From contig CAVVOP010000008.1 in the NCBI GenBank assembly GCA_963749915.1, positions 864,001-928,000 on the forward strand: a stretch of DNA of 64,000 bases, given 5' to 3'. The translations under genes and the position numbers were made by a program. The stretch is from an uncultured cyanobacterium (GTDB lineage: Bacteria; Cyanobacteriota; Cyanobacteriia; Cyanobacteriales; Cyanobacteriaceae). Positions 1,607 to 54,279 of this stretch are shown piece by piece; positions within the stretch are counted from its first letter, which is position 1, and each line of letters begins with the position of its first letter. Under the pieces are notes generated by a model. That model was given only the letters and a program-made list of their open reading frames with translations. It made no database searches and was not told the DNA's origin.

Positions 1607-4600
1607 CTAAAACCGCATTTGATAACGCACCTTAAATTCACCATAAATATAATCATAGGAAACTGTGACATTAGAATTATCTTTTATCTCATAAACCCCC
1701 TCAACTAACGGGAAAAGCCGTAAATCTTTCATTCCTACTGGTTTACCCCAAGTACTGACTTTTTCATTTACCCCAAAACTGATATTATTAGCTAAAGGCA
1801 CTAAGATAAATTGTATCAGACCATTTTCAAATAATTCCTCACCGCTTAACTGCTGTAATTGAGTCGCTAAGTTTAACAACTGTCCCCCCACAATTAAGTT
1901 AATTAACTCCCCTTCAGTGCGGTTAGGACTACTACTTAAAGACACTAATGGCGAGTTTAACAGATTCAAATTTGTACCTTGTTGATTAGTTAAAACTGCT
2001 AAATTGATACATTGCGATACTTTGCTTAATTGTGAGGGTGATAGTTGAATATTCTCAGCAATAGGAGTAGAAGACGGCACACGACACACACCATAACCAT
2101 CATCCGATAAAACCGGGAATAGTTGAGCTAACCTTCCATAAATTCTTAACACAACCTCTATATTTTCAGCTCTCCCACCCCTTATAATCGGATCTGATAC
2201 TTCATTTCTCTGAATATTGGGTAATTGTCTTGAATAATCGGCAATGTCAGCTTGTAATTCTATATCAATATTGGGATTAAGAATGCTTTCTTCTGGTCTG
2301 AATGTTATTATATTCTCATTAGTACGAGATAAAAAGAATGTAGTCTGTCCTATAGACGAAACAGATGTTAAACTTGTCAGTGGGCTAGCACCGCCCAAAT
2401 AAATTCGCCCTCTACGGACGTTTATTGCCCCTTCAGCCTTAAGATTTTGCCAATCAAATACACTCCCATTAAGGGTAAGTTCACCCCCAAATAAAAACCG
2501 ATAAAGTCGCCGTTGACTCGCTTCTGTATTATCTAGTTTGAGAGTAAAATTGTTTAATTGTGGCTGGAAGAAACGGGAATTTGAGGCGGAGGTATCTCCA
2601 AACCAATTCTGCCATAGCTGTTTATTTTCTGGTTCTGTGATGATTGTTTCGGCTTCGGGAAGGGTATTGTTAACTATTTTTGAGAAAATATCTTTGACTG
2701 CTTTGGGAAGGTTTGTTTCAAAAAGGGTAAAGTTCCCATTATTTAAACTTACATAACCGGCGATTCTAGGCTCTAATACTGTACCATCGATTGTTATATC
2801 TGCATCGACTTTTCCTGAGTAAATATTTTTCACTTGTAAGGCTTGATTAGGAATATTTAATGTGAGGAGATTTTCGTTACCTTTTAATGGTTTAATTAAT
2901 GGTAAAATTCCTGATATATTAACATCAGTATCATTAATTTTAGCCTGTAAATTAGTTACATCGATGGCTTGTTTTTCTTTTAATAAGTTTATAGTACCCG
3001 AGAGATTCAAGGGAGTATTTAAAGCAATACTATTAATTCTTGCCCTTTCAAAATTTATATTTCCCCCTAGGGCTATTTGCTCTAAATTAAATTTATTAAA
3101 TAACTGTGATAATGATGCTATTGTTATAGTTAAATCAGTAGATATATTTCCTTGAGTTAGTTGCAGTTGTCCCTTAGTAAGTAGCTCCAAAAATCTTATA
3201 TTTTCGGTGTTTAATTGTACATTAATTATTGCCGGTTTATCCGTTAAAACTAAAGGATGATAAGGTAAAGAGGCGTTAAGTTTAATATTTTTATTGTCGA
3301 TAGTGGCTATATCTAATTGATAATCTTTATAGGCAAAATTAGTATCTATTTTATCCTCAATAATTGATCCATCTATGGAGGTATTATTTAAACTTAACTT
3401 CCCTTTTATTTCAGGATTAAGTAAATTTCCTTCCAATTTCCCTTCCAAATCAATTAAACTTTCAACATCGAAAGGTAAAGGGAAAAAAGCTGTAATATAA
3501 TCTAGGGAAAAGTCTTTTATTTTAAAATTACTTTCTTGACTTTTTGGTGACAAATTTCCAGCGAATAAAATTTCACTATTCCCAATATTTAAACGAAAAG
3601 GTTTTACCGTTAAATTATCATTGTTAAAGTTAGCGTTGACGAAGATTTTTTGAATAGGAATTGTTTGACTTTCTTGGATAATTAAACCTAACCCATCGAC
3701 AATATTCGGGAAGCGTTGTTGGGGTAGCCATTGCCATTGATTGCCCTCAAAGTTAACGTCAATCTCCGGCTGAGTTAGTTTCCCGCTGAGAAGAATCTCC
3801 CCTTGATAGCCACCAGTTATCTCTAAATTGTTAGGCATTGTACCAGATTCTATCTGTTTTGCGATCCCACGGATCTGTTGATCTATACTGGAGAGTAAAT
3901 TTACTTTGGTTTTAAGAGAATCGTCTTCCTTGCCAACAGATTGCGGAGGAATGGAGGAAGCGGCGGCGAAGAAATCTTGATTTTGGAATTGTTTTACTAA
4001 ACCCGTTAGGGTAGCGACATCGGTTATTTTCAACGTGTTAAAAATGTCTTCCACGTTGCCTTGTAAGTTAACTTTACCGTCAATATTTTGCGTCGCTAAG
4101 TTTATTTTTCCTTGGAAATCATAGATAGTATCACCAAATTTTAGTCGCCCGTTATTTAATTGTGCAATGTCATTTTGGTAGTTAAAATTCGTGGTGAATT
4201 GTTTGCCGATAATATTCCCAATGCCGAGATTGTCTAACTTTAAGTCACCTTTGGCGGTTAAGTCAGTTAAATTAATAGTAAAATTTGTCGTCAAGTTTCC
4301 CTGAATTTTACCGTCTATACCATAATTAATGACTGGTTGGATTTGTAGATTTTCTAAGGGGAAATTATTAACGGAAGCAATAAACTGGTTATCTTCTCGT
4401 CTTCCTTGAAAGTTGAAAGGAAAGTTACCGGTTTTATTAATTTCCAAACTATTAGGTGTAAAGGGAATAGTTAAATTAACAGAGGGAATTGATAAGGTTT
4501 TTTTTAGGAAATTGGCAGCGATAATATCTTCTTTGCCTCGTAAATCTAAGACAATTTTTTCACTGGGATTAATAATAACTTTTCCCGTCAAAGAAGATTC

Positions 4601-7600
4601 AAATTCCAGTTGATTAAAGTTAAGGTTAGTTAGAGTTAAATTTCCCTGAATATTAAGATTATTTTTACCTAGGGGATTAGTTAATAAATTTTGTGCCGTG
4701 ACAACTCCTTGAAATTTAGCATTGCCACCAAGATTCACCGATTGAGGAAGAAAACTGATACGTTGATTATTAGATAAAGAGGAAAAGAATTGATTAACAG
4801 GGATAATATTTAAGTTAGAGTCGGCCGTTATTTGCAGTTGTAAATTATTTAGGTCCGGTTGAGTCAGAATATTGACAAGATTAAATTTACCTTGGGCGTT
4901 AATAGTATTTTTTCCCGACTCGATAACCGCTGACTCAACATTAACAGGAAAAGAAACAGCCTTCTGAGAAAAAAGAGGAAGATTCCCACTAATATTTATT
5001 TGACTATTGATATTCTCTAAATCACGGAGACTGATCTTCGAGTTACCATCAAGAAAAGACAATTGTTGATTGAGACTTTCAAGGTTAAGGTTTTGGGTAT
5101 TAATTTGACTTTGCCATTGATTATTATTAACTTTCATGGTGAGATTGAAATTTCCCCCTGCTAACCCGCCTCGAAAATTTCCCGTCAGGTTGAGACTATT
5201 AATGGTGGCAAAATTATTAAAGTTAAAGGGTTGTTTTACTAATTGATATAACTCCCTTGTTTTCGCCGACAGGTTTATCTGACCGGATTTAACTTCCCCT
5301 TCAAAGGCAGGAAAGATTTGATTAACACTGAGTTGACTAACATCCGTAAAAAATTCTGTCTTTTCCTCATCAATTTTAGCGACAGTATTTAGTAAACCGT
5401 TTTCGATTCGCAGTTGACTATCAGCAGTAATGATTAAACTAGGAGGAAGATTTCTCCTTTCTTCATTGCCAATGTCGATTAATTGTACAACATCGCCAAC
5501 AATCTCAAATTGACTATTAACAATATGAGTCGTCGTCGGTAAAGAAGGGAATAACTTATTAACAGATATTTGATTAAGGTCACCGTTGATAAACAATTTA
5601 CTATTAACCAAACGAGTGTCCAACTGTAAATTACCACCATCAATAACAAGGTTAACTTTTCCCTGCCCTTCTATATTATTAAAGTTGATTTTTCCTTTCT
5701 TTTCTGCTATCTGCTGTCTACCCTCTGCCTTTCCTAATTTTCCCCTCACACTAATATCCAAGTCTTTCGCATTCATCGGCAAATTGACATTAATGGGAAG
5801 ATTCTCACAATTAGAAGGGTTTTGACAAAATTGATCGAGCAAAGGAGTTAGATTAACATTATTACTGACCGCCGAAACTTGCCAGGTTTTTTCCTTCAAG
5901 TCACCATTACCACCAACTTGGATGCGACTTTCATTAACCACTAACTCGGTGTCAAGAAGATTAACTCGATTCTTGTCGATAACTAACCTTCCCCTTGCTG
6001 AGAAGATTCCCAAATTTTCACCGTTCATATTCACCAAAGAAAAAGAAACTCTTCCTTGGGGTTGGTTAAGATTCCCTTTTATTTCTCCTGCTGCCGATAA
6101 ATTACCAATATCCACCCCAGGGGATAAAAAATTATAACTATCAATTAACTGACTCGATGGTAAATTGGCAGTGAATCGAAAATTGAAAGGAATCTTCGAA
6201 CCTTGAACGGGTTTTCCTGAGGCAAGATTTTCACGGAAATTAGTATTAATAATGCCCTGAGTAACGATTTTCCCACCCTTTGGTGGTTTAACAGCGATTT
6301 CTTTAACGGTAACTTTATCTAAATCCGCCAAAAATTGACTATTAATTTCTCCCAAATCTAATCTATCAACTCGACTATTTTTTACCTTAATTTTTCCTTG
6401 GATTTTCGGATTATCTATGTCTCCTTTGACTTGAAAATTCCCTGACAACAATCCATCAACTAAAACAGAAGACTTAATACTTAAACTCGGTAAAACTCGA
6501 CTGAGAACAACAGGGTTAAGATTCGCTGTCAGATTGTACCCTGATTTGATACCAATATCACCGTCAACAGAACCTCCTAAATCCCCTAAAGTAAAATTAG
6601 CAGTGGCAATGTTAACAAATTCTTCCTCTAGATCTAAAGATACATTTGCTGTAAAACTTTTTCCTAGGAGGGGAATCTTCCGCACTTTTTCATTATCACT
6701 AATCTTGCTACCATTGAGTTGTCCTTCTACATCCTCTAAACTAATTTTTCCCCTAATAATTGTCTCTTTAATTTTCGGCAGGGAAGAAGTCATCAACTCT
6801 AAATTACTGTTTAATCTCCCTTCCTTTATCTCGAAGGGTAAGTTAGGAATTAAATAAGCCACCTCCGGTAGATAAAGATAACGAATTTCTAGCTGATTTT
6901 TACTCTTGGTGTTGCTTAATAAGGTTTCTCCCTCAATATCAATGTGACTGTTATTGATAGTATTCTCTAGCTGATAGCTTAAGGGTTGAGTGTCATCATC
7001 ATAAAGTAACTTCAATTTTCCCTTTGTCTTTATCTCTACCGCCTTCGTTTGTGCATTGGGAGTAACGGCAATCTTCCCGTGATTTAACCGTAAATTAATT
7101 CTCGTCTCTATCGGGATCGGTAACGGCGGTAACTTGAGGGAATCTGGTAAAGGCTTTTGTTTGTCCTTCAATAATAAGGTGTCTAATTGCCCATAACCGA
7201 CGGCATCATTAACAATAACATTAACGAATAGACTGTGGCGCAAAATTATCGACAATAAATCTACACTAATTTTAACCGCATCTATTTCCAAAAAGCTTGG
7301 ATCTTCCTGGGTTGGTGGAATCGCTAAATTTTCAAAAATAACTTGATTAAAAGAAAAACTACTAACCTCGCCTAAACTAACATCTCTGTCCAGAATTTTT
7401 TCTAACTCTTCTTCCACCCTTAAAGGAATAACCGTTGTGACTAAATGCCTACCTCCAGCGTAACCACCTACAACCATAGCCGTTAACGTTACCAAAGAGA
7501 TAATTTGAGTCTGGGGTTTTTTGAGAATTCCTATTATCCTATCGGTGAAAGCCAATGGGGATTCATTATAATCCGAATCTGGTGGTTGTTGATTAGTCAT
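1607..7600 (-). CDS. tamB: Translocation/assembly module TamB-like (AsmA/DUF490) protein
   Basis: 1997 aa; single N-terminal TM; long beta-rich repeats; C-terminal DUF490-like region (LSSSPNRTEGELINLI). Confidence 0.8.
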   Translation of the reverse strand: MTNQQPPDSDYNESPLAFTDRIIGILKKPQTQIISLVTLTAMVVGGYAGGRHLVTTVIPLRVEEELEKILDRDVSLGEVSSFSFNQVIFENLAIPPTQEDPSFLEIDAVKISVDLLSIILRHSLFVNVIVNDAVGYGQLDTLLLKDKQKPLPDSLKLPPLPIPIETRINLRLNHGKIAVTPNAQTKAVEIKTKGKLKLLYDDDTQPLSYQLENTINNSHIDIEGETLLSNTKSKNQLEIRYLYLPEVAYLIPNLPFEIKEGRLNSNLELMTSSLPKIKETIIRGKISLEDVEGQLNGSKISDNEKVRKIPLLGKSFTANVSLDLEEEFVNIATANFTLGDLGGSVDGDIGIKSGYNLTANLNPVVLSRVLPSLSIKSSVLVDGLLSGNFQVKGDIDNPKIQGKIKVKNSRVDRLDLGEINSQFLADLDKVTVKEIAVKPPKGGKIVTQGIINTNFRENLASGKPVQGSKIPFNFRFTANLPSSQLIDSYNFLSPGVDIGNLSAAGEIKGNLNQPQGRVSFSLVNMNGENLGIFSARGRLVIDKNRVNLLDTELVVNESRIQVGGNGDLKEKTWQVSAVSNNVNLTPLLDQFCQNPSNCENLPINVNLPMNAKDLDISVRGKLGKAEGRQQIAEKKGKINFNNIEGQGKVNLVIDGGNLQLDTRLVNSKLFINGDLNQISVNKLFPSLPTTTHIVNSQFEIVGDVVQLIDIGNEERRNLPPSLIITADSQLRIENGLLNTVAKIDEEKTEFFTDVSQLSVNQIFPAFEGEVKSGQINLSAKTRELYQLVKQPFNFNNFATINSLNLTGNFRGGLAGGNFNLTMKVNNNQWQSQINTQNLNLESLNQQLSFLDGNSKISLRDLENINSQINISGNLPLFSQKAVSFPVNVESAVIESGKNTINAQGKFNLVNILTQPDLNNLQLQITADSNLNIIPVNQFFSSLSNNQRISFLPQSVNLGGNAKFQGVVTAQNLLTNPLGKNNLNIQGNLTLTNLNFNQLEFESSLTGKVIINPSEKIVLDLRGKEDIIAANFLKKTLSIPSVNLTIPFTPNSLEINKTGNFPFNFQGRREDNQFIASVNNFPLENLQIQPVINYGIDGKIQGNLTTNFTINLTDLTAKGDLKLDNLGIGNIIGKQFTTNFNYQNDIAQLNNGRLKFGDTIYDFQGKINLATQNIDGKVNLQGNVEDIFNTLKITDVATLTGLVKQFQNQDFFAAASSIPPQSVGKEDDSLKTKVNLLSSIDQQIRGIAKQIESGTMPNNLEITGGYQGEILLSGKLTQPEIDVNFEGNQWQWLPQQRFPNIVDGLGLIIQESQTIPIQKIFVNANFNNDNLTVKPFRLNIGNSEILFAGNLSPKSQESNFKIKDFSLDYITAFFPLPFDVESLIDLEGKLEGNLLNPEIKGKLSLNNTSIDGSIIEDKIDTNFAYKDYQLDIATIDNKNIKLNASLPYHPLVLTDKPAIINVQLNTENIRFLELLTKGQLQLTQGNISTDLTITIASLSQLFNKFNLEQIALGGNINFERARINSIALNTPLNLSGTINLLKEKQAIDVTNLQAKINDTDVNISGILPLIKPLKGNENLLTLNIPNQALQVKNIYSGKVDADITIDGTVLEPRIAGYVSLNNGNFTLFETNLPKAVKDIFSKIVNNTLPEAETIITEPENKQLWQNWFGDTSASNSRFFQPQLNNFTLKLDNTEASQRRLYRFLFGGELTLNGSVFDWQNLKAEGAINVRRGRIYLGGASPLTSLTSVSSIGQTTFFLSRTNENIITFRPEESILNPNIDIELQADIADYSRQLPNIQRNEVSDPIIRGGRAENIEVVLRIYGRLAQLFPVLSDDGYGVCRVPSSTPIAENIQLSPSQLSKVSQCINLAVLTNQQGTNLNLLNSPLVSLSSSPNRTEGELINLIVGGQLLNLATQLQQLSGEELFENGLIQFILVPLANNISFGVNEKVSTWGKPVGMKDLRLFPLVEGVYEIKDNSNVTVSYDYIYGEFKVRYQMRF

Positions 7601-7698: not shown

Positions 7699-9823
7699 CC
7701 CACATTCCGCACGTCAAACTGTATAATTTCAGATTATGAAATTAGAGACTGAAAAGTGACTATCAAAAGAAACTCTCAGTATGTTTTTTAAGTAAAAATA
7801 CTCAGTTACAAGTTAGTTCTCTAAATAATTAAGAGAACTTAGATAAATTATTATAAAACTAAGCCTATTAAAGGGATAATTAAATTAAGTTTTTAAGGGA
7901 ATTTTGATGATGATTTCCTCAGAAGAAATACAAGTTCAAACTATTAATCATTTAGGATTAATCGCTGGAATTATAGATGAAATTGGCCTTGAAAAAATTA
8001 TTAATGATGCCCTTGGGATTGACGAGAGGGAAATTGTCACAGCTGGTCAAATAGTCAAAGCAATTATACTTAATGGATTAGGATTTATTTCTCGCCCTCT
8101 TTATCTATTTCCACAGTTTTTTGAAGACAAAGCCACGGAACATTTAATCGGAAAAGGAATACTACCAGAACATTTGAATGATGATAGGATTGGGAGAATA
8201 ATGGATAAACTTTATGAGAAAGGATTATCTTCATTATTTTTAATAATAGCTTTGGCCGTAGTAAAAAAATATAAGATCAACATCGATTTTTCCCATTTGG
8301 ATTCAACTTCTTTTGCGGTAGAGGGCAAATATAGTCAAGAAAAAATTACCGGCAATTTTGTTAAAGAAAATACACAACAAGAGCTAATAAATCAAATTCC
8401 AATTAAGATAATTAGAGGTTATTCCCGTGACCATAGACCAGATTTAAAACAATTTATTCTGGATTTAATTGTAAGTAGTGATGGCGATATTCCCTTATTT
8501 TTAAGAGTAGCAGACGGCAATGAAAATGATAAAGCAATGTTCGGAAAAATAGCTTCTGAATACAAATCAATGATAGATTTTGAGACAATGATAGTGGGTG
8601 ATAGTGCTTTATATACAGAAAATAACCTCAAATTAATGAACGGAATGGAATGGTTATCAAGAGTTCCATTATCAATAAAAGATGCCCTCAATTTGGTTTC
8701 AGAATTACCATCATCTGATTTTATTCCTAGTAGTTTAGAGGGATATTCATGGTATGAAGTAAGGAATAATTACGCAGAAATTGAACAGAGATGGCTAATA
8801 GTAGAAAGTGAAAAAAGAAAAGTATCAGAGCTAGAAAAACTTAGAAAAAATATAGAGAAAGAAAAAGAAAAAACGGAAGAAAAATTGAAGAAATTGATGA
8901 AAGAAGAATTTAGCTCGTCACCAGGAGCAGAAGAAATAATATTGACACTGAATAAGACGTTAAAATATCATCAAATAACCGAGATAAAAATTAGCTGCAT
9001 TGAATTAAATAATCAAAAGAAAAAAACAAAAAAGAAAGAAGAAAAATCGGGAAAAACTTATCAAGTTACGGCTATTTTGAAATCAGATTTAACGAAAATA
9101 AACGAATCAAAAAAAAGAGCAGGAAGATTTGTGTTAGCTACAAATAGATTGGATAAAAGTAAATTTAATTCTGATGAAATTTTAATTAAGTATAAAGAGC
9201 AACAAGCCGCAGAAAGAGGTTTTAGTTTTCTGAAAGATCCATTATTTTTTGCCGATAGTGTGTTTTTAAAAACCCCAAAAAGAATCGAAACAATGGCAAT
9301 GTGTTTTTGGGGTTATGTCTGTTAGTCTATTCTTTGGGGCAAAGAGAAGTGCGTCGCTTATTAGAGGAGAGAAAAACGGGGATAAAAAATCAGCTAGGAA
9401 AACTAACGGAACGTCCAACGTTAAGATGGATATTTCAATGTTTTCAGGGGATTCATTTAGTAATAAATCAAGGAATAAAACAGATAGTAAATCTAACAAA
9501 TGAACGAAAACTAATTTTAAGTTTTTTCCCGATTTCTTGTCATAATTATTATATTTTATCTGGATAACTTATGGGATTTAAGAGTCTAAACATTCTCAAT
9601 TATAATACCATAAATAAAGAATAGAAAACTGATAGATTTGCTCTGTTTATTTATTCTCATTAAAGGTGAAGTTATTGACAATGAGATTTTAATTTGAGCA
9701 AAGTTCGCAAGTACAAAACGCGAATAAAGAAGATATTGAGTATGATTACTTATATTTTGTCCAAAATAAGTTGCTTGGTTTTAATACTTTTATCATCTTA
9801 CAAAGTGACGTGCGGAATGTGGG
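7699..9823 (+). mobile_element. IS1634-family insertion sequence
   Basis: 18-bp perfect TIRs CCCACATTCCGCACGTCA (7699-7716) and its reverse complement (9806-9823) enclose the transposase; no target duplication. Confidence 0.9.
7904..9567 (+). pseudogene. IS1634 transposase, frameshifted near 9300
   Basis: HLDSTS, GYSRDHRPDLKQ and ERGFSFLKDP motifs; the C-terminus (GLCLLVY...PTLRWIFQCF) is in another frame (9301-9567). Confidence 0.85.
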
Positions 9824-10124
9824 TTACAGATTAACTAAATCATTTCCCAAAGAAGAAATCTATGGTTTAACCAGTCAGATACGCCGATGCTCTGTAAGTA
9901 TCAGTAGTAATATAGCTGAAGGTTACGGACGCAGAAGCACAGCTGAATATATCAGATTCTTAAACATAGCTCAGGGAAGCTGTAATGAATTGGAGACTCA
10001 ATTAATTATTGCTCAGAGAATTGGTTACTTAACGGTTGAATCTATCAGAGAGATTAACCAAGAATTATTAAGCATTACCAGAATGTTGATTAGTCTTACC
10101 AACAAACTTAAAGAAAAACTCTAA
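9824..10124 (+). pseudogene. Four-helix-bundle protein (23S rRNA IVP-like), 5'-truncated by IS1634
   Basis: YRLTKSFPKEEIYGLTSQIRRCSVSISSNIAEGYGR...GSCNELETQL starts right at the IS end. Confidence 0.8.
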
Positions 10125-10186
10125 CACTACTCCCCACTCCCTACTCCCCACTCCCCATCATTATCATTAAATTAAGGAGAAAAACC

Positions 10187-10714
10187 ATGAAACTATATGA
10201 ATTAACCAGTAAATTACAGGAATTAGAGGACACTATAGAGAATCTGGAGGGTGTAGATATACCTGCTGATGTACACTTGGAATACTTAAAATTATTAGCA
10301 GAAGCAGAAGAAACAAATGATAAATTTATTGATAAAATTGATTCAATTTTATGCTTAATACAGTCGAGAAAAAGATGGTTGGAAATGAGAAAAGCAGAGG
10401 CAGAAAGACTGAACAAATTAATTAAAAAGGATGAGAAAACTATTGACTGGTTACAAGAATATCTTAAACAACATTTAGAGAAAATAGGTAAAACTAAGTT
10501 CAGAACAAATAAGTTTAATGTATCCATCAGAAAAGCTAGTATAGCTCCCTTACATTTACTCAGAGAAGATGCTAAAAGCTATCCTCAACAATACCAGAAG
10601 GTAACAATAGAAGTAGATAAAAAGGCACTTAAAGAAGCAGTAATTAATGGTGATGCAGAAGCCTTAAAGTATGCAGAACTAGGAGAAAAATCAACTTATC
10701 TATCAATTAGATAA
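10187..10714 (+). CDS. Siphovirus Gp157-family protein
   Basis: MKLYELT N-terminus, coiled coil, and EVDKKALKEA...LSIR C-terminus typical of Gp157; RBS AGGAG upstream. Confidence 0.8.
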   Translation: MKLYELTSKLQELEDTIENLEGVDIPADVHLEYLKLLAEAEETNDKFIDKIDSILCLIQSRKRWLEMRKAEAERLNKLIKKDEKTIDWLQEYLKQHLEKIGKTKFRTNKFNVSIRKASIAPLHLLREDAKSYPQQYQKVTIEVDKKALKEAVINGDAEALKYAELGEKSTYLSIR

Positions 10715-10739
10715 ACTATATGGGGCTTTAAATAGCCCT

Positions 10740-10787
10740 AGTAAAATACTAAGTAAAATACTAAGTAAAATACTAAGTAAAATACTT
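10740..10787 (+). repeat. 4 x 12-bp tandem repeat AGTAAAATACTA
   Basis: Read directly; two further copies in inverted orientation at ~23255-23280. Confidence 0.85.
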
Positions 10788-10971
10788 GGCAAAAACTATT
10801 TATTACTTGTAACGAACCGGAATATGCGAAGCGGAAGACGAGAAGGCTAGAAGGCGAGCTTTGACCTAGATTAAGGTTTAATAGAAAATATATTGTTACT
10901 TGAATAGCGATCGCTCGCTTACTGAAATAGGTTAAGATTATAAGTAATTACTTATAATCTGGAGAAGCAAG

Positions 10972-11337
10972 TTGTCAGAAACCAGTGAAATTAAATCAGT
11001 TATTTGGATGGGAGATAGTCTCGAACAAGTTAAAAAATTTCCTGATTTTGTTCGCCGTGAAATTGGTTCATCTCTGTATGATGCGCAGTGTAGAGACAAG
11101 CCATCTGATGCCAAACCTTTTAAGGGAGTTGGCAGTGGAGTGTTTGAAATTGTAACCAGATTCGATTCTGATACTTACAGAACAGTTTATGCTGTACAAA
11201 TCGGCGACTGTATTTATGTTCTTCATGCTTTTGTTAAAAAATCACCGAAAGGAATTAAAACTGCCCAAAAAGATGTGGATTTAATTAAAAAACGGTACAA
11301 ACAAGCATTAGAAAAATCTAAGGAGAAAAATCAATGA
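10972..11337 (+). CDS. RelE/HigB-like (Gp49-type) toxin
   Basis: AKPFKGVGSGVFEI...YRTVYAV...YVLHAFVKKS motif. Confidence 0.85.
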   Translation: MSETSEIKSVIWMGDSLEQVKKFPDFVRREIGSSLYDAQCRDKPSDAKPFKGVGSGVFEIVTRFDSDTYRTVYAVQIGDCIYVLHAFVKKSPKGIKTAQKDVDLIKKRYKQALEKSKEKNQ

Positions 11338-11666
11338 CTGAAGAAATCATGTCCTTTGAATTTACACAAAGTAGTGGTAATGTTTTTGCTGATATGGATT
11401 TAGATGATGGAGATGAACTTCTGACTCGTGCTAAACTCGGTTTTGCTGTCCGGAAGATGTTAGAAAATCGTAATTTAAAACAACAAGAAATAGCTAATTT
11501 ACTCAATATTAAACAACCAGAAGTTTCTAATTTAATGAAAGGGAAATATCATCTATTTTCCGAAAGTCGTTTGTTTAGTTTTTTGAATAAACTAGAACAA
11601 AAAATAATGATTCAGATTACCCCTCATCATACAGGAGAACCTTTAATTGATGTTGCAATTAGATAG
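11334..11666 (+). CDS. XRE-family HTH antitoxin
   Basis: SSGNVFADM...LKQQEIANLLNIKQPEVSNL; overlaps the toxin stop. Confidence 0.85.
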   Translation: MTEEIMSFEFTQSSGNVFADMDLDDGDELLTRAKLGFAVRKMLENRNLKQQEIANLLNIKQPEVSNLMKGKYHLFSESRLFSFLNKLEQKIMIQITPHHTGEPLIDVAIR

Positions 11667-11833
11667 ATGACATAAGAAGAATAACCTATGAGTCGGCGAA
11701 AATAGAAGGTTCTTGCAACGAGGGGCAAGTGACAAACAGTTCTTCTCAATTAAATTTTTAATGTCTCTGTCTTTTACCCATATCATTTTCGATCGCGCAG
11801 CGGCAGGCAAAGCCTGGTCGCCTCTCAATTTCC

Positions 11834-11922
11834 CACTAACGTTGCCCATCACCCACCGCAGATAACCTTTGCATCAATACCGAATCACTTTCGTCGGTCG
11901 GTGTGCATGGGCGTTGTTAGCT
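11834..11922 (-). repeat. attC-like (integron cassette) imperfect palindrome
   Basis: Minus strand reads GCTAAC-AACGCCCATGCACACC...GGTGGGTGATGGGCAAC-GTTAG: core boxes ending AAC and starting GTT, with complementary arms. Confidence 0.6.
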
Positions 11923-12066
11923 GCAATCGCTTGCTTCAAGGAATTTATAAGAATAGTGAGTTCCCCAAAATTTATCGGTGGGGTAGTAGGAGTTGAAGTG
12001 GGGAACGCACCCTACAAGATCGGCGATCTAACCTCGACGGGTTGCCCATTCGGCTCTCTTGATCGC

Positions 12067-12747
12067 TCAGGTCAGACCTTTGGTGTCATCTTCGAGTTCC
12101 TCGACCATCCACTCACCACCGACCTTATCCCACTTCTTGACCTTAGCCAGTAAGTAAGCAAAGCAGGTGTTCTCGGGAATCTGAACTTTGCTAGAAGTAG
12201 TTGATGAGGAACTGGCTCCAACGTTCAAAGTGAAGCCCGATGTTCCCAGGGGGGCGCTCACCGAAACGCTGCCGCCAGTAGTCACCCGTGACGCGAGCTC
12301 CGCCTCCATCACGATCCACACGTCGCTCACGATCCGCGCGTCTTTCCCTTCTTCCTTAAGATTATTGCGTGCGACGTCCGCATGCTTGTTAAGCAGTCTT
12401 TTCAACGCGTTGCTGGGTACGCTGAGCTTGATCAGAACCAGGTTGGCTGATTTGGCTGCGCCGCGGCTGAAGGCAACCTGACCACCGGCAGCGGTCAGGT
12501 ACTTGATCCCAACGTTCACTTCCTTGTCGGAGAAGTTGTCCCATTCAATGAGGTAGGGGCCGGATGTCGTGACGTCAACCTTTGCAAGGTTAGCCGGACT
12601 GACGGTTCCTGCAAGGTATAAGTAAGGCGCTTTGCCCAAAGGCGTCTTCTTCTCTCCAAAAGACACAAGGTTGACATCTTCGCAACCACCTCGGAAATAG
12701 CTCTTGCCGGAGTAGACAAATTTGGAGTCAGAGATTTTAACTGTCAT
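12067..12747 (-). CDS. Putative gasdermin-like pore-forming protein (high GC, foreign)
   Basis: Motif order KLSVPSNALKRLL / LKEEGKDARIVSDV / Ser-Gly-rich hairpin / KVQIPENTCFAYLL parallels the gasdermin N-domain. Confidence 0.55.
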   Translation of the reverse strand: MTVKISDSKFVYSGKSYFRGGCEDVNLVSFGEKKTPLGKAPYLYLAGTVSPANLAKVDVTTSGPYLIEWDNFSDKEVNVGIKYLTAAGGQVAFSRGAAKSANLVLIKLSVPSNALKRLLNKHADVARNNLKEEGKDARIVSDVWIVMEAELASRVTTGGSVSVSAPLGTSGFTLNVGASSSSTTSSKVQIPENTCFAYLLAKVKKWDKVGGEWMVEELEDDTKGLT

Positions 12748-13068
12748 GATACTTAACGTGTCTCCATAGAATTCAGATTTTTCAATTGTGCCGGACGTAC
12801 TTCATCGTTAATCAGCACTCTCAGGATATTAACCCCATACAGGATGATATCCCGAAATTTTCTGTATATTCTGTGATAATAGCAAGAAACTTTCTGGGTA
12901 ACATGCTAAATAGTTATACTATCAAGAAATATTCTGGATATCATATTAGGTAGGTCAAAACCTCCTAAAAAATTTCTTATAAATTTGTTTTATTCAATAT
13001 AACTGAAAAACCATTACCGAGATATTTTTCTTAACATATATTTATATCTAGCTTGAAATACAGTTAAA

Positions 13069-13306
13069 AACATAGTCTTTTTGCCTTCGGTTTATCTCAA
13101 AGGCTACTGTTTCCGACCCTAGGTCACTGCGTGGCTGGAACTGGTGAGACAATGACACGACCGCTTTTCTATTATACCCGTTCTGTGGTGCGACTAGGCA
13201 ACACCTTAATTGAAGTCGCTCCGCCGCCATAGTTTAGTTCTACTTGCCTATAGTCTTCGTAACGGCTACGCTCCATTTATTTATTTTTGCCTTGCGCACA
13301 GATCAA
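13069..13306 (+). repeat. 238-bp structured element, copy 1 (inverted copy at 23795-24031)
   Basis: Manual alignment shows near identity with clustered differences; contains hairpins (GCCTT..AAGGC, GACC-CTA-GGTC) and a TATAAT on the opposite strand. Confidence 0.9.
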
Positions 13307-13321
13307 AGTTCACTGTGAAAA

Positions 13322-13654
13322 ATGAGAACGGGTGAAAAGAAGCTGTTCTTTCGTTGGGGGTTTGTTCCCGTGGTTTCTTTCCGTGTTGTTTCTGGTTCTG
13401 CGTTGGCTTGTTCTGCGGTGTCTTGGTGGTTGCGTCCGGGGCGTTCTGGTGGTGGCTTCCGTCTGGTTGCCCGTTTTCCTTCCTTGGCTTTGGCTTCTTT
13501 GTTTGCTCGGCGCTGGGCTGGTGCTTGTGGTTTCTCGGCGGTGGCGGTTCGTCCTTGTCCTGCTGTTCCGGGGTGCTGGGTTGTGTCTGTTCCCGTTGTT
13601 GTTCCTGCGTCCTCGCCCGTTCGTGGGTGGGGTGCTTGGTCGGCTCTTCCCTAG
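13322..13654 (+). CDS. Adenine-free ORF, hypothetical 110-aa protein
   Basis: No A between 13342 and 13652; the only A in 13342-13700 lies in this ORF's TAG stop. Confidence 0.5.
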   Translation: MRTGEKKLFFRWGFVPVVSFRVVSGSALACSAVSWWLRPGRSGGGFRLVARFPSLALASLFARRWAGACGFSAVAVRPCPAVPGCWVVSVPVVVPASSPVRGWGAWSALP

Positions 13655-13947
13655 TGGCTCTGGTGGGGGTTGTTGCCCCTGCCTTCTTTTTTTTGTCGTT
13701 AAACTTTAACTGCCCTTCTGCCTTCTGCCTTCCTGCCTTCTTTAAGATCCCAAGTATATGTGATACATACAATAAATTTAGGGTATGCTAATGCAACCTT
13801 TTCGTACCCTTTGACAGCAAGACTCTTTTTCCCTACAGTTATTTATATAAAAAGTCGATGATTTTTTATTATCAGCAAAACCCCTGAAGTGTAAAATAAC
13901 TACCAAGGGCTTGGTAGCTATCGATTTTAATCTGATTAATTAATATT

Positions 13948-19198: not shown

Positions 19199-19531
19199 TC
19201 AAATTCTAGAAAAGGGAGAACAAGGTCTTTCAACACAGGGACCTCGACGAACCTGAATACCTCCAAACCGAGAGTCGAAGCAATAAGTAACTTCTCTGAT
19301 GCTTTGTCGAAAGCCAAGAAATCCAAATGGTGGAATGGGCTGAAGCCGGCAACGGCTACATTCTTCAAACAGGCTAAAACAATTAAAAGGTGCTACTGGA
19401 ACTCCTTCTAGAATCTCTCTTGGGTCAAAGAAACCTGAATCAAAATTTGGTTGAGATGGAGCAATCTTGGCAGTAAGTGGTCTCATGTTACTGTTTCGAT
19501 TGGTGCCAACAGATTGTATTGGAATTTTCAT
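19199..19531 (-). CDS. Cys-rich peptide with cyanobactin-like leader (#3)
   Basis: MKIPIQSVGTNR...KIAPS leader; 6 Cys. Confidence 0.6.
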   Translation of the reverse strand: MKIPIQSVGTNRNSNMRPLTAKIAPSQPNFDSGFFDPREILEGVPVAPFNCFSLFEECSRCRLQPIPPFGFLGFRQSIREVTYCFDSRFGGIQVRRGPCVERPCSPFSRI

Positions 19532-19878: not shown

Positions 19879-20136
19879 TTAACCAAAGCCAATAGTAAAG
19901 TTTTGTGCTATGCAAAACCCAAAAGGAATACAACCAAAAGTATTGTTGCAGATGCTAGTTAATCGGCAAGCAAAACCTTGGGGACAGTTAACGTATCCTA
20001 AAATCTCGCGACAAATACGACGATTATCACCAGGGCAACATGCCGCAGGATGCACTCCTACTTTATCTAGATTACTAGCGTGAACACTAATGATACTAGC
20101 TCTCACAGTAGAGTTAGCCTGTTTGGGAAGTTTCAT
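19879..20136 (-). CDS. Cys-rich peptide with cyanobactin-like leader (#2)
   Basis: MKLPKQANSTVR...GVHPA leader; 8 Cys; RBS GAGG. Confidence 0.65.
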   Translation of the reverse strand: MKLPKQANSTVRASIISVHASNLDKVGVHPAACCPGDNRRICREILGYVNCPQGFACRLTSICNNTFGCIPFGFCIAQNFTIGFG

Positions 20137-20381: not shown

Positions 20382-20684
20382 CTAAGGGAAAACTGGCACG
20401 GGTCTTGGCCTCGCTTGGAATGGGAAAGGTGGGGATGCCGGATCCTCAGGAGGAAGCCCAGCAATCGTGCACGCAAAAGTGCAGCCGTCATGACAAATAT
20501 CAGGAGGAACCCATATAGGACAGGCAAGCTTGCAGAGATCTCGGCACAAGTTGCCGGGACCCTGCGGTTGCGGTTCGCGTAGGATAGTACCGAAGCGACC
20601 AACCCAAGCTGCATTAATGCCAGTATAAGAGGGCATTGCTCTTGTGCTGCGCGTAACATTGACGGATTGAACTGGGAGTCTCAT
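20382..20684 (-). CDS. Cys-rich peptide with cyanobactin-like leader (#1)
   Basis: MRLPVQSVNVTR...GINAA leader; CxxxCxxxC...CxxxCxxxC core; RBS AGGAGG. Confidence 0.65.
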   Translation of the reverse strand: MRLPVQSVNVTRSTRAMPSYTGINAAWVGRFGTILREPQPQGPGNLCRDLCKLACPIWVPPDICHDGCTFACTIAGLPPEDPASPPFPFQARPRPVPVFP

Positions 20685-20846: not shown

Positions 20847-22444
20847 GTTGGTGTCTTGAATTTTTCGCCACAGATATTAACCATAAAAAGGCGATCTGCT
20901 TGCAGCAGCGCTTCGCTCCGCCAAATCTCAAAGGCGATCATTAAACCTCAAAGGAGATCGTTAAACCTCAAAGGCGATCATTACCACGAAAAGATGGTGG
21001 TCTGCTTCATTAAATAATAGATGTCAGTAATTCAAAATTAAGGGAACAGTGAGTCAAGCCTCAGGGAAAGGGTCGGTTGTGTTTCGCGTGTTCTCGTTGG
21101 ACAACGAGGAAGAACAAAGTCAGACAACTCATTTCATTGGGAAAAGAGCCGATTTCATCAGCCTTACGACGAAATTCTTCAAAGAGGCGTTCGAGCAAGT
21201 TGGATGTCCGAATTCGGGGATGCAACTCCGCTTCAAATTGGTAAAAGGTGAAAGTCAGCTCAATATCTCGCAGAAAGACTTCTACCGCTTTCGCTTCTAA
21301 GTTTTGCCACTTTTTGACAAAAGCATTGAGTCGTTGCCGGGCCTCAATCCAAGACTGAGCACGATAGATATCATAAGCGTCTTCTTGAATCTCAAAGCGG
21401 CGTTGCTGTTTGGCTTGCTGCTCATCGAAGTCGGCAGTTGTTGTCTCGGACGAGGGAGACAACTGTTGATAGGTGAGATAGCGCTTCATTCCTCTCACCT
21501 TGTGAGTTGTGCATCGTTGCTGTTGGGCATTGGGTAAGCACTGTGTCATCACACCTGGCAGTCCTGAAATCCCATCACTGACTATGAGCTTAACCGCTTG
21601 GGGGTCGAGTCCTCGCTCAGTTAAGTGAGTGAAGAAATTTAGCCAAGATTGACTGTTTTCTCCTTCAGCTATTTCATAGTGCAACAACTGGTAGGTGCCA
21701 TCGGGCCAGACCGCCATAGCGGCTAAGATAACCCGCTCTTGAGCTTGGCGTACTTGACGAAGATGTCCAGCTCGGTCAAGTTTCTTCTCATCCAGTGTGT
21801 ATAAAATATCTATCCAGACTCCATCCACAATCAGAATCGGTGGGGTTACCTCAATCAGAGACTGACGCCGGATTTCCATCTGTTTTTGAGCCTCCAGAGT
21901 TACACGATTGACGGCAGTTAGTGAGAGAACACTGCCAAGTAGATGATACAATGCTTCTTGGAGATTTCGTAGAGATAATCCCAAGACATAAAGACACAGT
22001 GTCATGTCTAGTAAGCTCTGAAGCCCTCTTTGATAACGTTTGAGAATCTGCCATTCTCGTTCATGATTGGAGTCGCGCAGTTTGGGGACTCGTAACTCAG
22101 GGATTCTCCCATACTGAGTGTCCAACAGACGATGGAAATAACCTGAACGTCTTGCCTGAGGACCACTTCGGCTAGAGCGAAACGACTCTAACTCTTCCAC
22201 TAGGGCTGCTTCGACGGTGGCTTTGATAACTCCTGTAACTTCAGTACGCAGAGTGTTTTCCAGTTCTGAAGTAATTTCTGACTGAAAGCTTTGAGATTTG
22301 ACACGGAGAATTTGCTGTTCTCGTTCTGCGAGCTTCATAAACGAGTCCTTAAATATCAAGTTTAATTTCTTGGTTTATCTTGTTTATCTTGTTTATCCTG
22401 CTTTCATCAGCTTGTCAAGGTGGCGAAAAATTCAAGACACCAAC
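20847..22444 (-). mobile_element. IS256-family insertion sequence
   Basis: 25-bp TIR GTTGGTGTCTTGAATTTTTCGCCAC (20847-20871, inverted at 22420-22444); internal 3 x 20-bp repeat at ~20923-20982. Confidence 0.85.
21061..22359 (-). CDS. IS256/Mutator transposase
   Basis: RSGYFHR.LDTQYG.I..LRVPK, LIVSDG, QQRCTTH and RTSNLLERLFEEFRR motifs. Confidence 0.9.
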   Translation of the reverse strand: MIFKDSFMKLAEREQQILRVKSQSFQSEITSELENTLRTEVTGVIKATVEAALVEELESFRSSRSGPQARRSGYFHRLLDTQYGRIPELRVPKLRDSNHEREWQILKRYQRGLQSLLDMTLCLYVLGLSLRNLQEALYHLLGSVLSLTAVNRVTLEAQKQMEIRRQSLIEVTPPILIVDGVWIDILYTLDEKKLDRAGHLRQVRQAQERVILAAMAVWPDGTYQLLHYEIAEGENSQSWLNFFTHLTERGLDPQAVKLIVSDGISGLPGVMTQCLPNAQQQRCTTHKVRGMKRYLTYQQLSPSSETTTADFDEQQAKQQRRFEIQEDAYDIYRAQSWIEARQRLNAFVKKWQNLEAKAVEVFLRDIELTFTFYQFEAELHPRIRTSNLLERLFEEFRRKADEIGSFPNEMSCLTLFFLVVQREHAKHNRPFP

Positions 22445-23042
22445 TAAAAAGATAATCAATCCCTTCCTGCCTTAACTCTTGTAACTCCTCCCACAGATTC
22501 CGAATGACTAAAATAGTTCTTTGTTTACTTCCCTTACCAACGATCGATAAATTAACTAAATCATCATCAACCCTAAAATTCGACCACTTCAAATTAACCG
22601 TCTCACTCACCCGTAAACCCAAACCAAACATCACCTTAACTAATAGCTTATCTCTAGTCGTTTGGGCATGGTCAATTAATTTCTGTATATCCTCCACCGT
22701 TAACAACTTCTGAGAAATAGTCTCATTTACCTTGGGACTCTCAATCATCGATGCAGGATTAACCTTGAGATAGCCTGTCTTCACACAGTAGGAAAACAAA
22801 CTCTTAATAATCATCAACTTCACCTTAATAGTTGATGCCTTTTGTTGTCTTAATTGTAGAGATCGCAGATAATCTTGAATATCCTCTAACATAATCTCCG
22901 ATAAATCCTTACCCGTAAATGCCATAAATTGTTGTATCGTACAGGTATATTGACTTTGCGTATGTACAGACCGCTTATTGGTTAACCAACTTAAGAGCAT
23001 TTCCGAGTCGTTGTTAGCACGAGTGACTTTCTCCGAGCGCAT
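22445..23042 (-). pseudogene. Tyrosine recombinase/integrase, 3'-truncated by IS256
   Basis: RDKLL...GLRVSE...VGKGSKQR present; the last ORF residues derive from the IS end; catalytic HxxR and Y are absent. Confidence 0.85.
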
Positions 23043-23496
23043 GATGACCCCAGGATTTTAGAGAATGAAATTATTATATCTGAGTGAGGATTACTTTGAA
23101 CATTATATATAGTTATGTTCAATCCGACCTGGCACAGACAAACTTATTGAGTCAGAATAATTCACCCTAATCTTTACGGTCATTACTTTTCAGCCTGTTG
23201 CCACCTGGCTCAAATAACCTTGACTCTTTTGACACCAAAACTCTTGATTTCACCAAGTATTTTACTGAGTATTTTACTAGTATATTATTAGTTTGACGGA
23301 CGGGCGATCGCTTTTTTGAGAATAATAAAATTAATTATTTCACACTTCTAAATCAATATTTATGGCTCTACTGAAAGAGTCAAATAACTCTTAACCCCCT
23401 GTTGCCGCACTAGTAAGCATCACCAAAGTATTTCACTTCTTTTCCATCAAATGCCATCAATAAGTGCTGACCTTCTTCGTCTTCAATCTGATATAA

Positions 23497-23794
23497 CCCA
23501 CATTCCGCATGTTCTTTTAGAAAACAATCATATTTTAATGACTTTTACGCAACTTTACTATAGGTAATACATATATTTATTGTTTTTTGCGAGCAGCTTC
23601 GCTGTGCCCTTGGCATCGCATAGTGACAATTGGCGAGCAGCTTCGCTGTGCCTTTGGCATCGCCATATACAGATTTTTACAGTATTTATATTTGTTTAAT
23701 CTCAATTTCGTTGTTTTATTACTTGGGGAATATTTTGTAAACAAGGCGTTAAGGTATTACATGGCATAGTGCAAATTGACGTGCGGAATGTGGG
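23497..23794. mobile_element. MITE / deletion derivative with IS1634 ends
   Basis: CCCACATTCCGCA...TGACGTGCGGAATGTGGG, the same TIR as the 7699-9823 element; 298 bp; internal 2 x 31-bp repeat. Confidence 0.8.
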
Positions 23795-24031
23795 TTGATC
23801 TGTGCGCAAGGCAAAAATAAATAAATGGAGCGTAGCCGTTACGAAGACTATAACTAAGTACAACTAGACTATGGCGGCGAAGCGACTTCAATTAAGGTGT
23901 TGCCTAGTCGCACCACAGAACGGGTATAATAGAAAAGCGGTCGTTCATTATCCCCACAGTTCCAGCCACGCAGTGACCTAGGGTCGGAAACAGTAGCCTT
24001 TGAGATAAACCGAAGGCAAAAAGACTATGTT
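23795..24031 (-). repeat. 238-bp structured element, copy 2
   Basis: Reverse complement of 13069-13306. Confidence 0.9.
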
Positions 24032-24149
24032 CTTTAGGGGTGACAACAACAAAACACTGTAAGCCGCTCTAGTTCTCGCTTATAAGTAGAGAATTAGTAC
24101 ATGCGTTTTGGTGAAGTTTAGTTTCAAATTGGGGTGAAGTGAGTCGAAG

Positions 24150-24320
24150 AACTGTTCGGCTAATGCTTACCAAGCTCCCCGACTCGGTTTGATTTTTGGA
24201 TGCTGTTACCAGCATCACAGGAACAGGCTGGACTCTTCGGATACACCCTCGACAGATTCCCACCTGCCAACTCTCGCGATGAAGAGACCTCCCGCCAACG
24301 CACACCACACGAAAACCGTT
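24150..24320 (-). ncRNA. DGR template-repeat 3' end plus spacer RNA remnant
   Basis: AAC GGT TTT CGT GTG GTG TGC (NGFRVVC, the CLec/FGE VR-type terminus), followed by a GC-rich segment and the hairpin GATGCTG-N4-CAGCATC (24199-24216). Confidence 0.7.
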
Positions 24321-25213
24321 CAGTCTTCGTCTTCCCCGATGTAAGTTACTATTTCTGACCCGAATTCGATCGCCTAAAATGCGGAAGCCAAGGAAGCTAG
24401 CACCGTATTTAGTGGCAAATAGTTGACTCTTGATGGGATGAATTTTTAGTCTGAGTATTGCCAAATACTCTTCTATTGCTATTCTGGCATCGGCGAGAAA
24501 ATCTCGTTCGTCGGCAAATAAAGCGAAATCATCAACGTATCTTACGTATTGAGAAGCTTTGAGAGTTTCTTTGACAAAGTGGTCAAAAGGATTGAGTATG
24601 ACGTTCGACCAGAATTGACTGGTTAAATTGCCTATAGGTATGCCTTTTCGCCTTTGTAAGGGGGTTAGCAAATCATCACCTGGAAAATATTCGATGACGG
24701 GTTCTTGTTCATTACTATTATCGATGATGGTATCAATCAGCCACAAAGTATCAGGACATTTGATTTTACGTCTGATTTGTCGTTTGAGAATTTGATGGTC
24801 GATACTGGGAAAATACTTCTTGATATCGCATTGCAAGACGTAGCGGCTGCGACGAAAAAACTCGATAAATCTTCTCAAAGCTCGATGGGTGACAAATCCC
24901 ACTCGGTTGGCATAAGAATCACGAATGAAAGTACGCTCAAAAATGGGAACGATTATATTACACAGGCCATGGTGAACCACTCTATCTCGGTAGGGAGCGG
25001 CAGAAATCAGACGGCTTTTAGGATCTCTGATATGAAAAGTTCGGTAATTTCCTGGTTGATATGTTTTAGCCGTAAGCTCCTGTTGTAATTTGATTAACTC
25101 CCCTTCTAAGTTGTAGTTGAAGTCTAAAATATTATCTCTAAATCTTTTGCCCAATTGTGCTTTTCTAGCGGCTAAATAGAGGTTATCAAATGTGATAATT
25201 TGGGGGTAGAGAT
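24321..25213 (-). pseudogene. DGR-type reverse transcriptase, truncated at both ends
   Basis: [40 protein letters not shown] and YVRYVDDF motifs; start replaced by the IS1 end; C-terminus fused to the TR. Confidence 0.85.
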
Positions 25214-41908: not shown

Positions 41909-41929
41909 CGTGAGCTACCTCCGCATTAA

Positions 41930-45527: not shown

Positions 45528-45587
45528 AAAATTAACTCCTCATCATAGCAATCACTATCTGTCTATTCATCAATTAATCTTTCTCCC

Positions 45588-46167: not shown

Positions 46168-46287
46168 TTATAGTTAACTTCGTATTGACAATGTCAATAT
46201 TTTATTCTCTCATCAATTTGTCTTTTATCCTTCAAAACAAAGTTGCCAGAGCATTAGCCTAAATAATCTTATATTTCTGATAACGAT

Positions 46288-46695: not shown

Positions 46696-46733
46696 AGGTA
46701 AAACTTGTTTAGATCATGACCATATAATATAGT

Positions 46734-47154: not shown

Positions 47155-47206
47155 ATATCTCTCCTCTATCAAGGTTAACCCACTCCTGCCATAATTTATC
47201 TTGCTC

Positions 47207-47452: not shown

Positions 47453-47460
47453 ATTTGGTG

Positions 47461-54269: not shown

Positions 54270-54279
54270 CTCTTACCTC

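Follow-up and report, generated by a model that had tools for sequence, protein, structure and literature searches.

The published bacterial gasdermins, in the accounts drawn on here, take two forms: suicide proteins that are activated by a protease, and toxin chimeras that carry an extra targeting domain. The canonical bacterial gasdermins (bGSDMs) are described as having a palmitoylated N-terminal cysteine and a cleavable C-terminal peptide (10.1101/2021.06.07.447441, PMC10153256); that inhibitory peptide is given as 17-67 aa (PMC13475620), and an adjacent protease is reported for 43 of 50 (10.1101/2021.06.07.447441). The pyroptolysins are presented as chimeras of a gasdermin and a cholesterol-dependent cytolysin (CDC), 325-400 aa long with a C-terminal immunoglobulin (Ig)-like sterol-binding domain; they are solitary gasdermin folds that are harmless inside E. 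coli and act from outside, and the study filtered out shorter proteins (10.64898/2026.10.05.756811). RCD-1, by its mechanism, and the Trichoplax gasdermin (TrichoGSDM) are cited as cleavage-independent single-domain precedents (PMC12547243). Here we analysed 64,000 nucleotides of an uncultured cyanobacterium (GCA_963749915.1, contig CAVVOP010000008.1, positions 864,001 to 928,000; the window). At 12067..12747 on the minus strand the window holds a minimal gasdermin-fold gene with a single-domain product of 226 aa (P0001), without a signal peptide in this copy. On the basis of profile alignments and predicted models, we conclude that this protein is a gasdermin homolog.

When the protein was searched as a single sequence it gave no match in the PDB and nothing relevant in NCBIfam, and it reached PF04598 at E=0.003 (17.4 bits, under the Pfam cut-off of 25 bits). 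A profile of 76 relatives returned seven PDB matches, all mammalian gasdermins (best E=0.039). With the alignment deepened to 139 sequences this match rose to the N-terminal domain of GSDMD at E=2.1e-5 (profile positions 43-200, 158 positions, bias 0.0), with GSDMD 58-221 matched best, and ten gasdermin entries preceded the first unrelated protein (E=0.37). PF04598 itself matches 44 of the 76 members at E≤0.1 (best 1.1e-9). The three motif pairs that the earlier note on this DNA had set beside GSDMD stay in register when HMMER aligns the family profile with the human protein. Across the 139 sequences hydrophobicity alternates at residues ~65-105 and ~155-190, as two barrel hairpins would. Predicted membrane hairpin 1 (12433..12555, minus strand; residues ~65-105) has alternating hydrophobic and polar columns, aligns to the GSDMD 58-125 region and is partly helical in the monomer model. 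Predicted membrane hairpin 2 (12178..12285, minus strand; residues ~155-190) is rich in Ser, Thr and Gly, with a period-2 amplitude of 0.23-0.29 and hydrophobic positions at 161/163/165 and 172/174/176.

Structure comparisons gave the same ranking. Two AlphaFold models had a predicted local distance difference test (pLDDT) of 91, and model residues 2-221/222 align to GSDMD ~7-234. A VIA comparison against 48,161 chains placed 11 gasdermins on top (Z 4.6-5.9, first unrelated chain 4.2). In a second comparison the top 21 rows were gasdermins (Z 4.5-6.3, root-mean-square deviation 4.1-5.1 A, 127-149 aligned residues), with CDCs next. Foldseek of the model against viral structures gave no match. 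Thus the claim of a gasdermin-like protein is borne out by the profile match and by structure searches that rank gasdermins first, although the proposed check by AlphaFold and Foldseek does so weakly. A convergent likeness, of Ser/Gly-rich hairpins on a mixed sheet, would fit the single-sequence results and the Z-scores, all below 8. However, only gasdermins come first in the sequence profiles and, independently, in two structure methods, and a deeper alignment brought the E-value down from 0.039 to 2e-5. We regard convergence as highly improbable.

The gene is not an orphan, as the earlier note had seen it; by sequence it is one member of a large, scattered bacterial family. A word-based search found 80 relatives among 516 candidates, and a full HMMER scan found 251 representatives at E≤0.001, of which 145 reach ≤1e-10. 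The family thus comprises ~250 clusters at 50% identity (251), spread across phyla and nearly always solitary genes. Named members are 'hypothetical' proteins of Nitrospira, Desulfobacter, Lamprocystis, Meiothermus, Piscinibacter, Chloroflexota, Bryobacterales and Deltaproteobacteria, and a few members bear automatic PF04598 labels. A close clade keeps 65-92% identity across phyla. Members were not found in the viral contigs, plasmids or phages searched. The genome-collection scan gave at least three loci among the matches listed, so the genome-level range is under-sampled.

We found that family members end where the pore domain ends. Among 287 stored proteins 253 are near-complete (210-278 aa), and all but two of these (251) terminate no more than three residues from the end of the model; an internal insertion accounts for one of the two. 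The best 120 of 288 matches in a search of 115-468 aa are all ≤278 aa, and no longer or fused form was seen among 8,000 candidates of 465-2,000 aa, which is weak evidence. Asp221 is near-invariant (138 of 139 aligned rows) and is followed by precisely five residues in 113 of the 138, with a range of 2-7 across the family. The earlier note had taken the C-terminus for a short acidic tail that could be removed, and in that form this part of its reading was not supported. The predicted models and the Asp column instead indicate a terminal beta-hairpin of the fold, residues 195-221 plus five residues (12070..12165, minus strand), modelled as strands E195-209 and E212-221 (pLDDT ~95 in the latter) and forming part of a predicted subunit interface. 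The net charge of the last 25 residues is only -2. In the alignments model residues 221-222 fall at GSDMD 232-234 and, in the active Vitiosangium pore, at residue 233, while residue 226 corresponds to residues 251-260 of resting bGSDMs, which lie in the inhibitory peptide; the alignment ends are noisy. At most, a five-residue C-terminal latch after Asp221 may exist on these models.

Judged from its sequences, the family is not a canonical bacterial gasdermin. It shares its fold with the bGSDMs of Runella, Vitiosangium, Bradyrhizobium and Lysobacter (Z 4.6-5.9), which are also bacterial, of similar size and partly helical in the hairpins at rest; unlike them it has no N-terminal cysteine, no 17-67-aa inhibitory peptide and no protease operon. 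The first cysteine of the cyanobacterial protein is residue 22, in a column that is 72% Ala, and a cysteine lies within the first 12 residues in 2 of 107 leaderless members. The PADLOC bGSDM model left the protein unmatched and hit 2 of 76 members weakly (best E=0.0086). Conversely, bGSDM chains were not matched by the 139-row profile at E≤10 in the PDB search, and hhalign against two single cyanobacterial bGSDM-type sequences, a weak test, gave 0.2-0.3%. The presence of PF26164 (Bact_GSDM) on 13% of the nearest Atlas cluster speaks against a separation from bGSDMs.

Canonical Cys-bearing bGSDM-type genes were seen in other cyanobacteria at L083:1492-1947, truncated at 151 aa, and at L085:3998-4954, where the 318-aa gene lies on a Gloeothece plasmid with no annotated protease adjoining. 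At L084:1426-2109 there is a solitary 227-aa protein with a weak bGSDM match (E=1e-8) and no Cys near its start. It is unmatched by the family profile and is possibly a further minimal gasdermin type.

The best sequence match of the family is the N-domain of mammalian GSDMD and GSDMA3 (PF04598), with the same order of hairpins, helices and terminal strands. Unlike the mammalian proteins the family has no C-terminal inhibitory domain or linker, shows ~14% structural identity, and is bacterial and sometimes exported. Hidden Markov model scores would place it closer to animal gasdermins than canonical bGSDMs are; this placement rests on those scores only, as structure scores are tied among bacterial, fungal, Trichoplax and mammalian gasdermins. 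The Trichoplax gasdermin and Neurospora RCD-1 are, like the family, pore-domain-only, cleavage-independent and without an inhibitory part, and they tie as the top structural matches (Z 5.8-6.3); the family profile matches TrichoGSDM weakly (E=0.15). Unlike TrichoGSDM, the family lacks conserved cysteines for a disulfide-locked dimer, the best Cys column being 20 of 139 and many members being Cys-free. Unlike RCD-1, no second allele was seen for it, and it differs from both in being bacterial and in part equipped with Sec leaders. CDC and CDC-like toxins, which are secreted beta-barrel pore formers, make up the next structural tier (Z 2.7-4.4), but there is no sequence match to them, and the family proteins are much smaller and without domains 2 or 4.

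Of the described bacterial proteins, the pyroptolysins are the closest functional precedent for an outward role. They share with the family solitary genes, environmental bacteria as hosts, a gasdermin fold and the lack of a protease operon. Compared by description only, pyroptolysins (325-400 aa) end in an Ig-like CDC domain 4 with a WP motif, whereas family members (210-278 aa) stop at the pore domain. Since the family has neither of the two published controls, its members must be kept inactive and set off by other means.

We found no protease beside the gene, as the earlier note had reported. No protease domain was present in 35 window ORFs (open reading frames) scanned, 12 around the gene and 23 others, several of which are without a Pfam match; the 1,997-aa ORF at 1607-7600 was not scanned. 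No C14 peptidase is encoded on the contig of the gene, the nearest CHAT gene is >300 kb away, and the C14 and CHAT genes of the genome are unlinked to it. The homolog neighbourhoods comprised 89 of 102 predicted neighbour ORFs (13 near-duplicates dropped) at 34 loci, some of them redundant and many on contigs of <3 kb. Among these 89 ORFs there was no recurrent neighbour, immunity gene or protease partner. Protease domains lay within 3.5 kb at 3 of the 34 loci, L015 (C39), L022 (S9, M19) and L045 (TPR-CHAT), and none was near the closest homologs, which sit amid housekeeping genes (pyruvate kinase/psiE, yggT/proC, hydF, tctC). With no cysteine, peptide or protease partner, the proposal that this protein is activated differently from known bGSDMs gains support. 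At L045:1146-6675 a member with an N-terminal extension lies beside an extracytoplasmic function (ECF) sigma factor and the TPR-CHAT protease, the only caspase-like neighbour seen.

We then considered where the proteins would act. By a hydropathy rule, 50 of the 253 near-complete members have a leader-like, basic-hydrophobic N-terminal extension of Sec type. In the 139-row set 32 have leaders, 26 of these with an AxA motif and one with a lipobox-like match. In the cyanobacterial copy an in-frame upstream stop leaves just 18 non-hydrophobic codons. On a tree of the mature domains the leader label needs 14 changes, against a shuffled mean of 29, and 0 of 500 shuffles were as low. The leaderless four-row clade of the cyanobacterial protein (Shimodaira-Hasegawa-like approximate likelihood ratio, SH-aLRT, 99) is placed among leader-bearing branches. 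The tree is unrooted, so leader gain and loss are not distinguishable.

Three copies of the protein were predicted to assemble head-to-tail with a score of 0.56, against 0.00 for the best of three controls; in calibration, 20 of 30 solved pairs scored this high, as did 1 of 23 single chains. The trimer runs share ≥86% of contacts, with a partner pLDDT of ≥84. In the predicted interface a face of residues 19-24, 31-48 and 125-133 packs against a face of 11-16, 60-66, 107-114 and 216-222. The middle copy uses two different faces, as in an open-ended chain. A two-component activation like that of fungal RCD-1, in which the protein would be inert alone and would need a partner variant, supplied by another strain or element, to form pores, would suit the pore-domain-only architecture and the tie of RCD-1-2 for the top structural match (Z 6.3). 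However, the host genome has the gene in one copy, the other genomes checked likewise have one copy of the family gene (in G409 a single gene lies in two pieces on separate contigs), and a homo-oligomer is tentatively predicted. We consider this alternative very unlikely.

Our analysis suggests that the protein is quite probably a pore former of some kind. The reading that we favour, and to which we give a little less than an even chance, is that it is a cleavage-independent, pore-domain-only gasdermin of a separate bacterial lineage which acts on other cells rather than in abortive infection. We favour another cell as the target because leaders appear and disappear within a single family, no partner for immunity or sensing is present, and the homolog neighbourhoods are not defence islands. 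In the mechanism that we propose, monomers would bind a target membrane and form a head-to-tail ring, and their two hairpins would unfold to build a large beta-barrel. Contact with the right membrane, marked by a lipid or receptor absent from the cytoplasmic leaflet of the owner, would set this off, and not cleavage by a dedicated protease. The normal role of the family would be damage to other cells, for example grazers or competitors. Exported members would leave by Sec, and leaderless ones such as this copy would be freed by lysis or ingestion. Some cytolysins have no leader and are released by lysis.

Several points weigh against this interpretation. The leaders were called by the hydropathy rule and not by SignalP, and ~80% of the family, this copy included, have none. 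The leaders were mapped on a quick, unrooted IQ-TREE tree, on which no more than 2 leader changes are forced by the starred branches. The proteins lack a receptor-binding domain of the kind that the Ig domain provides in pyroptolysins, which leaves target choice unexplained. On the side of the fold, the first 11 rows of Foldseek against the PDB were gasdermins, but the best had E 0.012 and none reached E≤0.001. The Z values from VIA, at ≤6.3, are below the level which VIA treats as clear, and the scores are modest and come from a predicted model; the gasdermin case therefore rests on the agreement of the sequence and structure rankings. The N-terminus is modelled as a beta-hairpin and not as the gasdermin alpha-1 'thumb' helix. 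The trimer prediction, made with three copies and a custom alignment, lies outside its calibration and may echo solved gasdermin pores. Finally, the integron context described below points to defence.

A non-lytic oligomer of the gasdermin fold, such as a large ring in the envelope of the producer, or a channel for export or a scaffold that remodels membranes there, was also considered. Sec leaders would put some members in the periplasm, and the lack of an immunity gene and of an obvious safety catch would present no difficulty for such a protein. The 65-92% identity of the close clade across phyla fits as well, and a 93%-identical relative on a marine metatranscriptome contig is a weak hint of expression without killing. 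Against this, the hairpins retain membrane-spanning amphipathicity and the distribution is patchy: the gene was found in 1 of 401 sampled genomes of the host phylum, namely the host genome, and the family gene in 3 of 401 genomes of another class, with an internal stop in one copy. Such a pattern is typical of conflict genes and not of structural ones, and we judge a non-lytic role unlikely.

The gene is under purifying selection. Against seven homolog genes the nonsynonymous divergence (dN) is 0.11-0.31. The synonymous divergence (dS) is saturated in six of the seven pairs, and the dN/dS ratio (omega) is 0.065 in the seventh, which argues for a conserved protein gene. The gene is also compositionally foreign and was probably acquired horizontally by its host, which by its density of HIP1-type octamers and its gene content would be a cyanobacterium. 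Its GC content of 0.53 compares with 0.325 in the left flank (10067-11690), 0.285 in the right flank (12817-13090) and 0.375 in the genome, and is among the highest 1% over 6,876 genomic windows (z 2.9). At third codon positions (GC3) it is 0.63 against 0.31±0.08 for the genome, a value matched by 14 of 2,455 long ORFs. The GC-rich stretch extends ~370 nt beyond the stop codon (11690-12066, GC 0.48). The earlier note had described a 226-aa gene richer in GC than its flanks and of foreign origin, and both statements stand. Its overall reading can thus be kept for gasdermin homology, foreign origin, the absent protease and the different activation, and is not supported, as it was worded, for the removable acidic tail. 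Contamination was ruled out, since the gene lies within a 940-kb contig with host repeats on both sides. Two sequencing-run contigs (X1 and X2) span both gene junctions with identical sequence; they are possibly the source material and hence not independent. A contig from a marine RNA library spans 12004-12812, shows 52 differences and loses its similarity before the attC site described below; a contig of this kind cannot prove expression. Promoter and terminator scans of the locus did no better than chance.

The locus around the gene is very likely an integron-derived slot, and whether the gasdermin gene was truly captured as a cassette is an even call. Downstream of the gene, 145 nt from its stop, is an attC-like recombination site (11834..11922, minus strand) with AAC/GTT cores, L boxes that pair 6/7 with one extra base, and 6-nt spacers. 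It has a z of about -2, ranks 8 of 145 heuristic matches in the genome, and has weak similarity to sequence beside full IntI genes. It was found by a custom heuristic and not by the IntegronFinder covariance model, with an attC model taken in part from PMC4889954; the looser rules were set after the site had been seen, the first rule being too strict to catch it. From the GTT crossover onward the 3' flank (11695..11840, minus strand) is common to two other loci of the genome (C21, C23) with different cargo each. From GTTAGTG at 11840 onward all three have the sequence in common, each after an attC-like end. A host repeat that we take to be REP-like lies between the stop codon and the attC site (11944..12028; 83% match to C32, 88% to C1). 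A second attC directly after the stop, with a core-like motif at 12026-12032, was rejected, as the marine RNA-library relative differs there.

On the 5' side a possible core site, GTTAAGT, lies three bases before the ATG (12751..12757, minus strand). It agrees with the expected GTTAGCT at 5 of 7 positions and is uncertain because it is no complement to the attC R'' core; the sister cassette on C21 does match. Beyond it we found a remnant of a cyanobacterial intI-attI interval (12817..12978). It matches what lies upstream of one full-length IntI (L103) at 76.5% over 162 nt (E=7e-29) and two other remnants in the genome at 79-83%, with homology stopping ~60 nt short of the conserved attI core. 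This upstream remnant leads into the decayed 5' end of an integron integrase gene (12950..13020, plus strand), divergent from the gasdermin gene. The locus thus resembles integron cassettes, or clusters of attC sites lacking integron integrases (CALIN), in its divergent intI remnant, attI-region homology, cassette orientation, terminal attC and exchangeable cargo. It departs from them in that the integrase is decayed, the attI core is replaced, a repeat separates gene and attC, the cassette ends are not complementary and no convincing attC is seen at the homologs. No IntI in the genome scored above the cut-off as intact. Likewise, no convincing attC was found behind 46 homolog loci by a rule that found 4 of 6 own-genome sites; eight homolog rows (four distinct sequences) passed at its weakest level, one of them resembling an attC start.

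The slot bears on the alternative that the protein is a single-gene abortive-infection effector, shut by its own fold or by the five-residue latch and opened by a phage protein, by a phage or host protease in trans, or by membrane stress. The gene sits between the intI/attI remnant and the attC site, integrons are described as stores of anti-phage genes (PMC13434031), and sister slots in this genome hold a GmrSD nuclease, type I-like restriction-modification genes, an NTPase with a weak STAND match and a pYEATS protein. DISARM and Csx1 genes lie 27-50 kb away. A leaderless, cytoplasmic copy would be placed to act within its own cell, the unlinked C14 and CHAT proteases of the genome could serve in trans, and the latch would draw on the alignment of residue 226 inside the bGSDM inhibitory peptide and on the five residues that follow Asp221 in most members. 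However, the genes in the C21 and C23 slots, which have that same 3' flank, showed no defence match, close homologs sit amid housekeeping genes, and the homolog loci have no convincing attC. A suicide effector would have little use for a Sec leader, and no member came from the viral contigs, phages or plasmids searched. Abortive infection is thus a rather doubtful alternative in our estimate, and we continue to prefer action on other cells.

Other parts of the genome and window are noted for completeness. The genome has at least six decayed integron-like slots filled with foreign genes (C21:212759-214008, C23:14951-16903, C13, C22 at 156.7 kb and 232.7 kb, and C21 at 501 kb; L090-L095), and their cargo also includes a pYEATS membrane protein and lipoprotein-like unknowns of 228 and 396 aa. 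The C21 cassette, whose crossover reads A and not G, seems to have entered a secondary site. On C13 at ~16.7-19.3 kb, window-like flanks surround an apparent C39-type peptidase gene, an unknown 203-aa gene and a radical-SAM gene, labelled by eye. Within the window, PADLOC calls a class I DISARM set, drmD-drmMI-drmA-drmB-drmC, at 39221-57519 (minus strand), with drmMI apparently split (49662-54269 and 49099-49617) and separated from drmA by ORFs without an assignment. At 58538-63479 (minus strand) a pair of Csx1 CARF-HEPN genes precedes a 706-aa AAA_33/KTI12-type kinase-like ORF, probably the edge of a type III CRISPR locus.

Nearer to the gene, 10187-11666 (plus strand) holds a siphovirus Gp157-like gene and a Gp49/HTH_37 toxin-antitoxin-like pair, and stretches of the whole block are found again at 94-98% on four small contigs, C10, C12, C13 and C15. 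An almost A-free, strand-biased tract (13280-13710; AT skew -0.98) with overlapping low-complexity ORFs resembles part of a repeated mobile element and has near-copies on C7, C8, C13, C23 and at 23795-24000 of the window. An insertion sequence with a DUF4277/DDE transposase, frameshifted here, lies at 7700-9826 and has >20 genome copies. At 21061-25223 there are a Mutator-family transposase, a truncated tyrosine integrase and a reverse transcriptase gene, likely of a group II intron. Short Cys-rich ORFs at 20382-20684 and 19879-20136 (both minus strand), with similar leaders (MRLPVQS.../MKLPKQA.../MKIPIQS..., the last at 19199-19531), are GC-richer than the host; the one tested had no Pfam match, and they possibly form a cluster of peptide precursors.

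In the literature searched, with most subscription papers outside the search, leader-bearing or pore-domain-only bacterial gasdermins were not described. Some members may already be among the 387 metagenomic homologs, picked by PF04598 hits, of Table S4 of 10.1101/2021.06.07.447441. A broader proposal, which we hold only tentatively and think less probable than not, is that the family forms a third bacterial gasdermin lineage apart from bGSDMs and pyroptolysins: a bare pore domain, often exported by Sec, that works with neither cleavage nor lipidation nor a targeting domain, and whose sequence is closer to animal gasdermins than that of canonical bGSDMs. Such a lineage may be a living intermediate from outward toxins to the self-killing gasdermins of animals, in which gain or loss of the leader would mark the switch between offence and suicide. 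Johnson et al. proposed that toxins acting on non-self membranes gave rise to the self-killing gasdermins (PMC10153256). For that idea the family offers small, well-folded and naturally paired test cases, with and without a leader. Current defence annotation overlooks it. Its signal-peptide members would be plain gasdermins that are exported, and the family as a whole is a candidate bacterial sister group for the tree of animal gasdermins.
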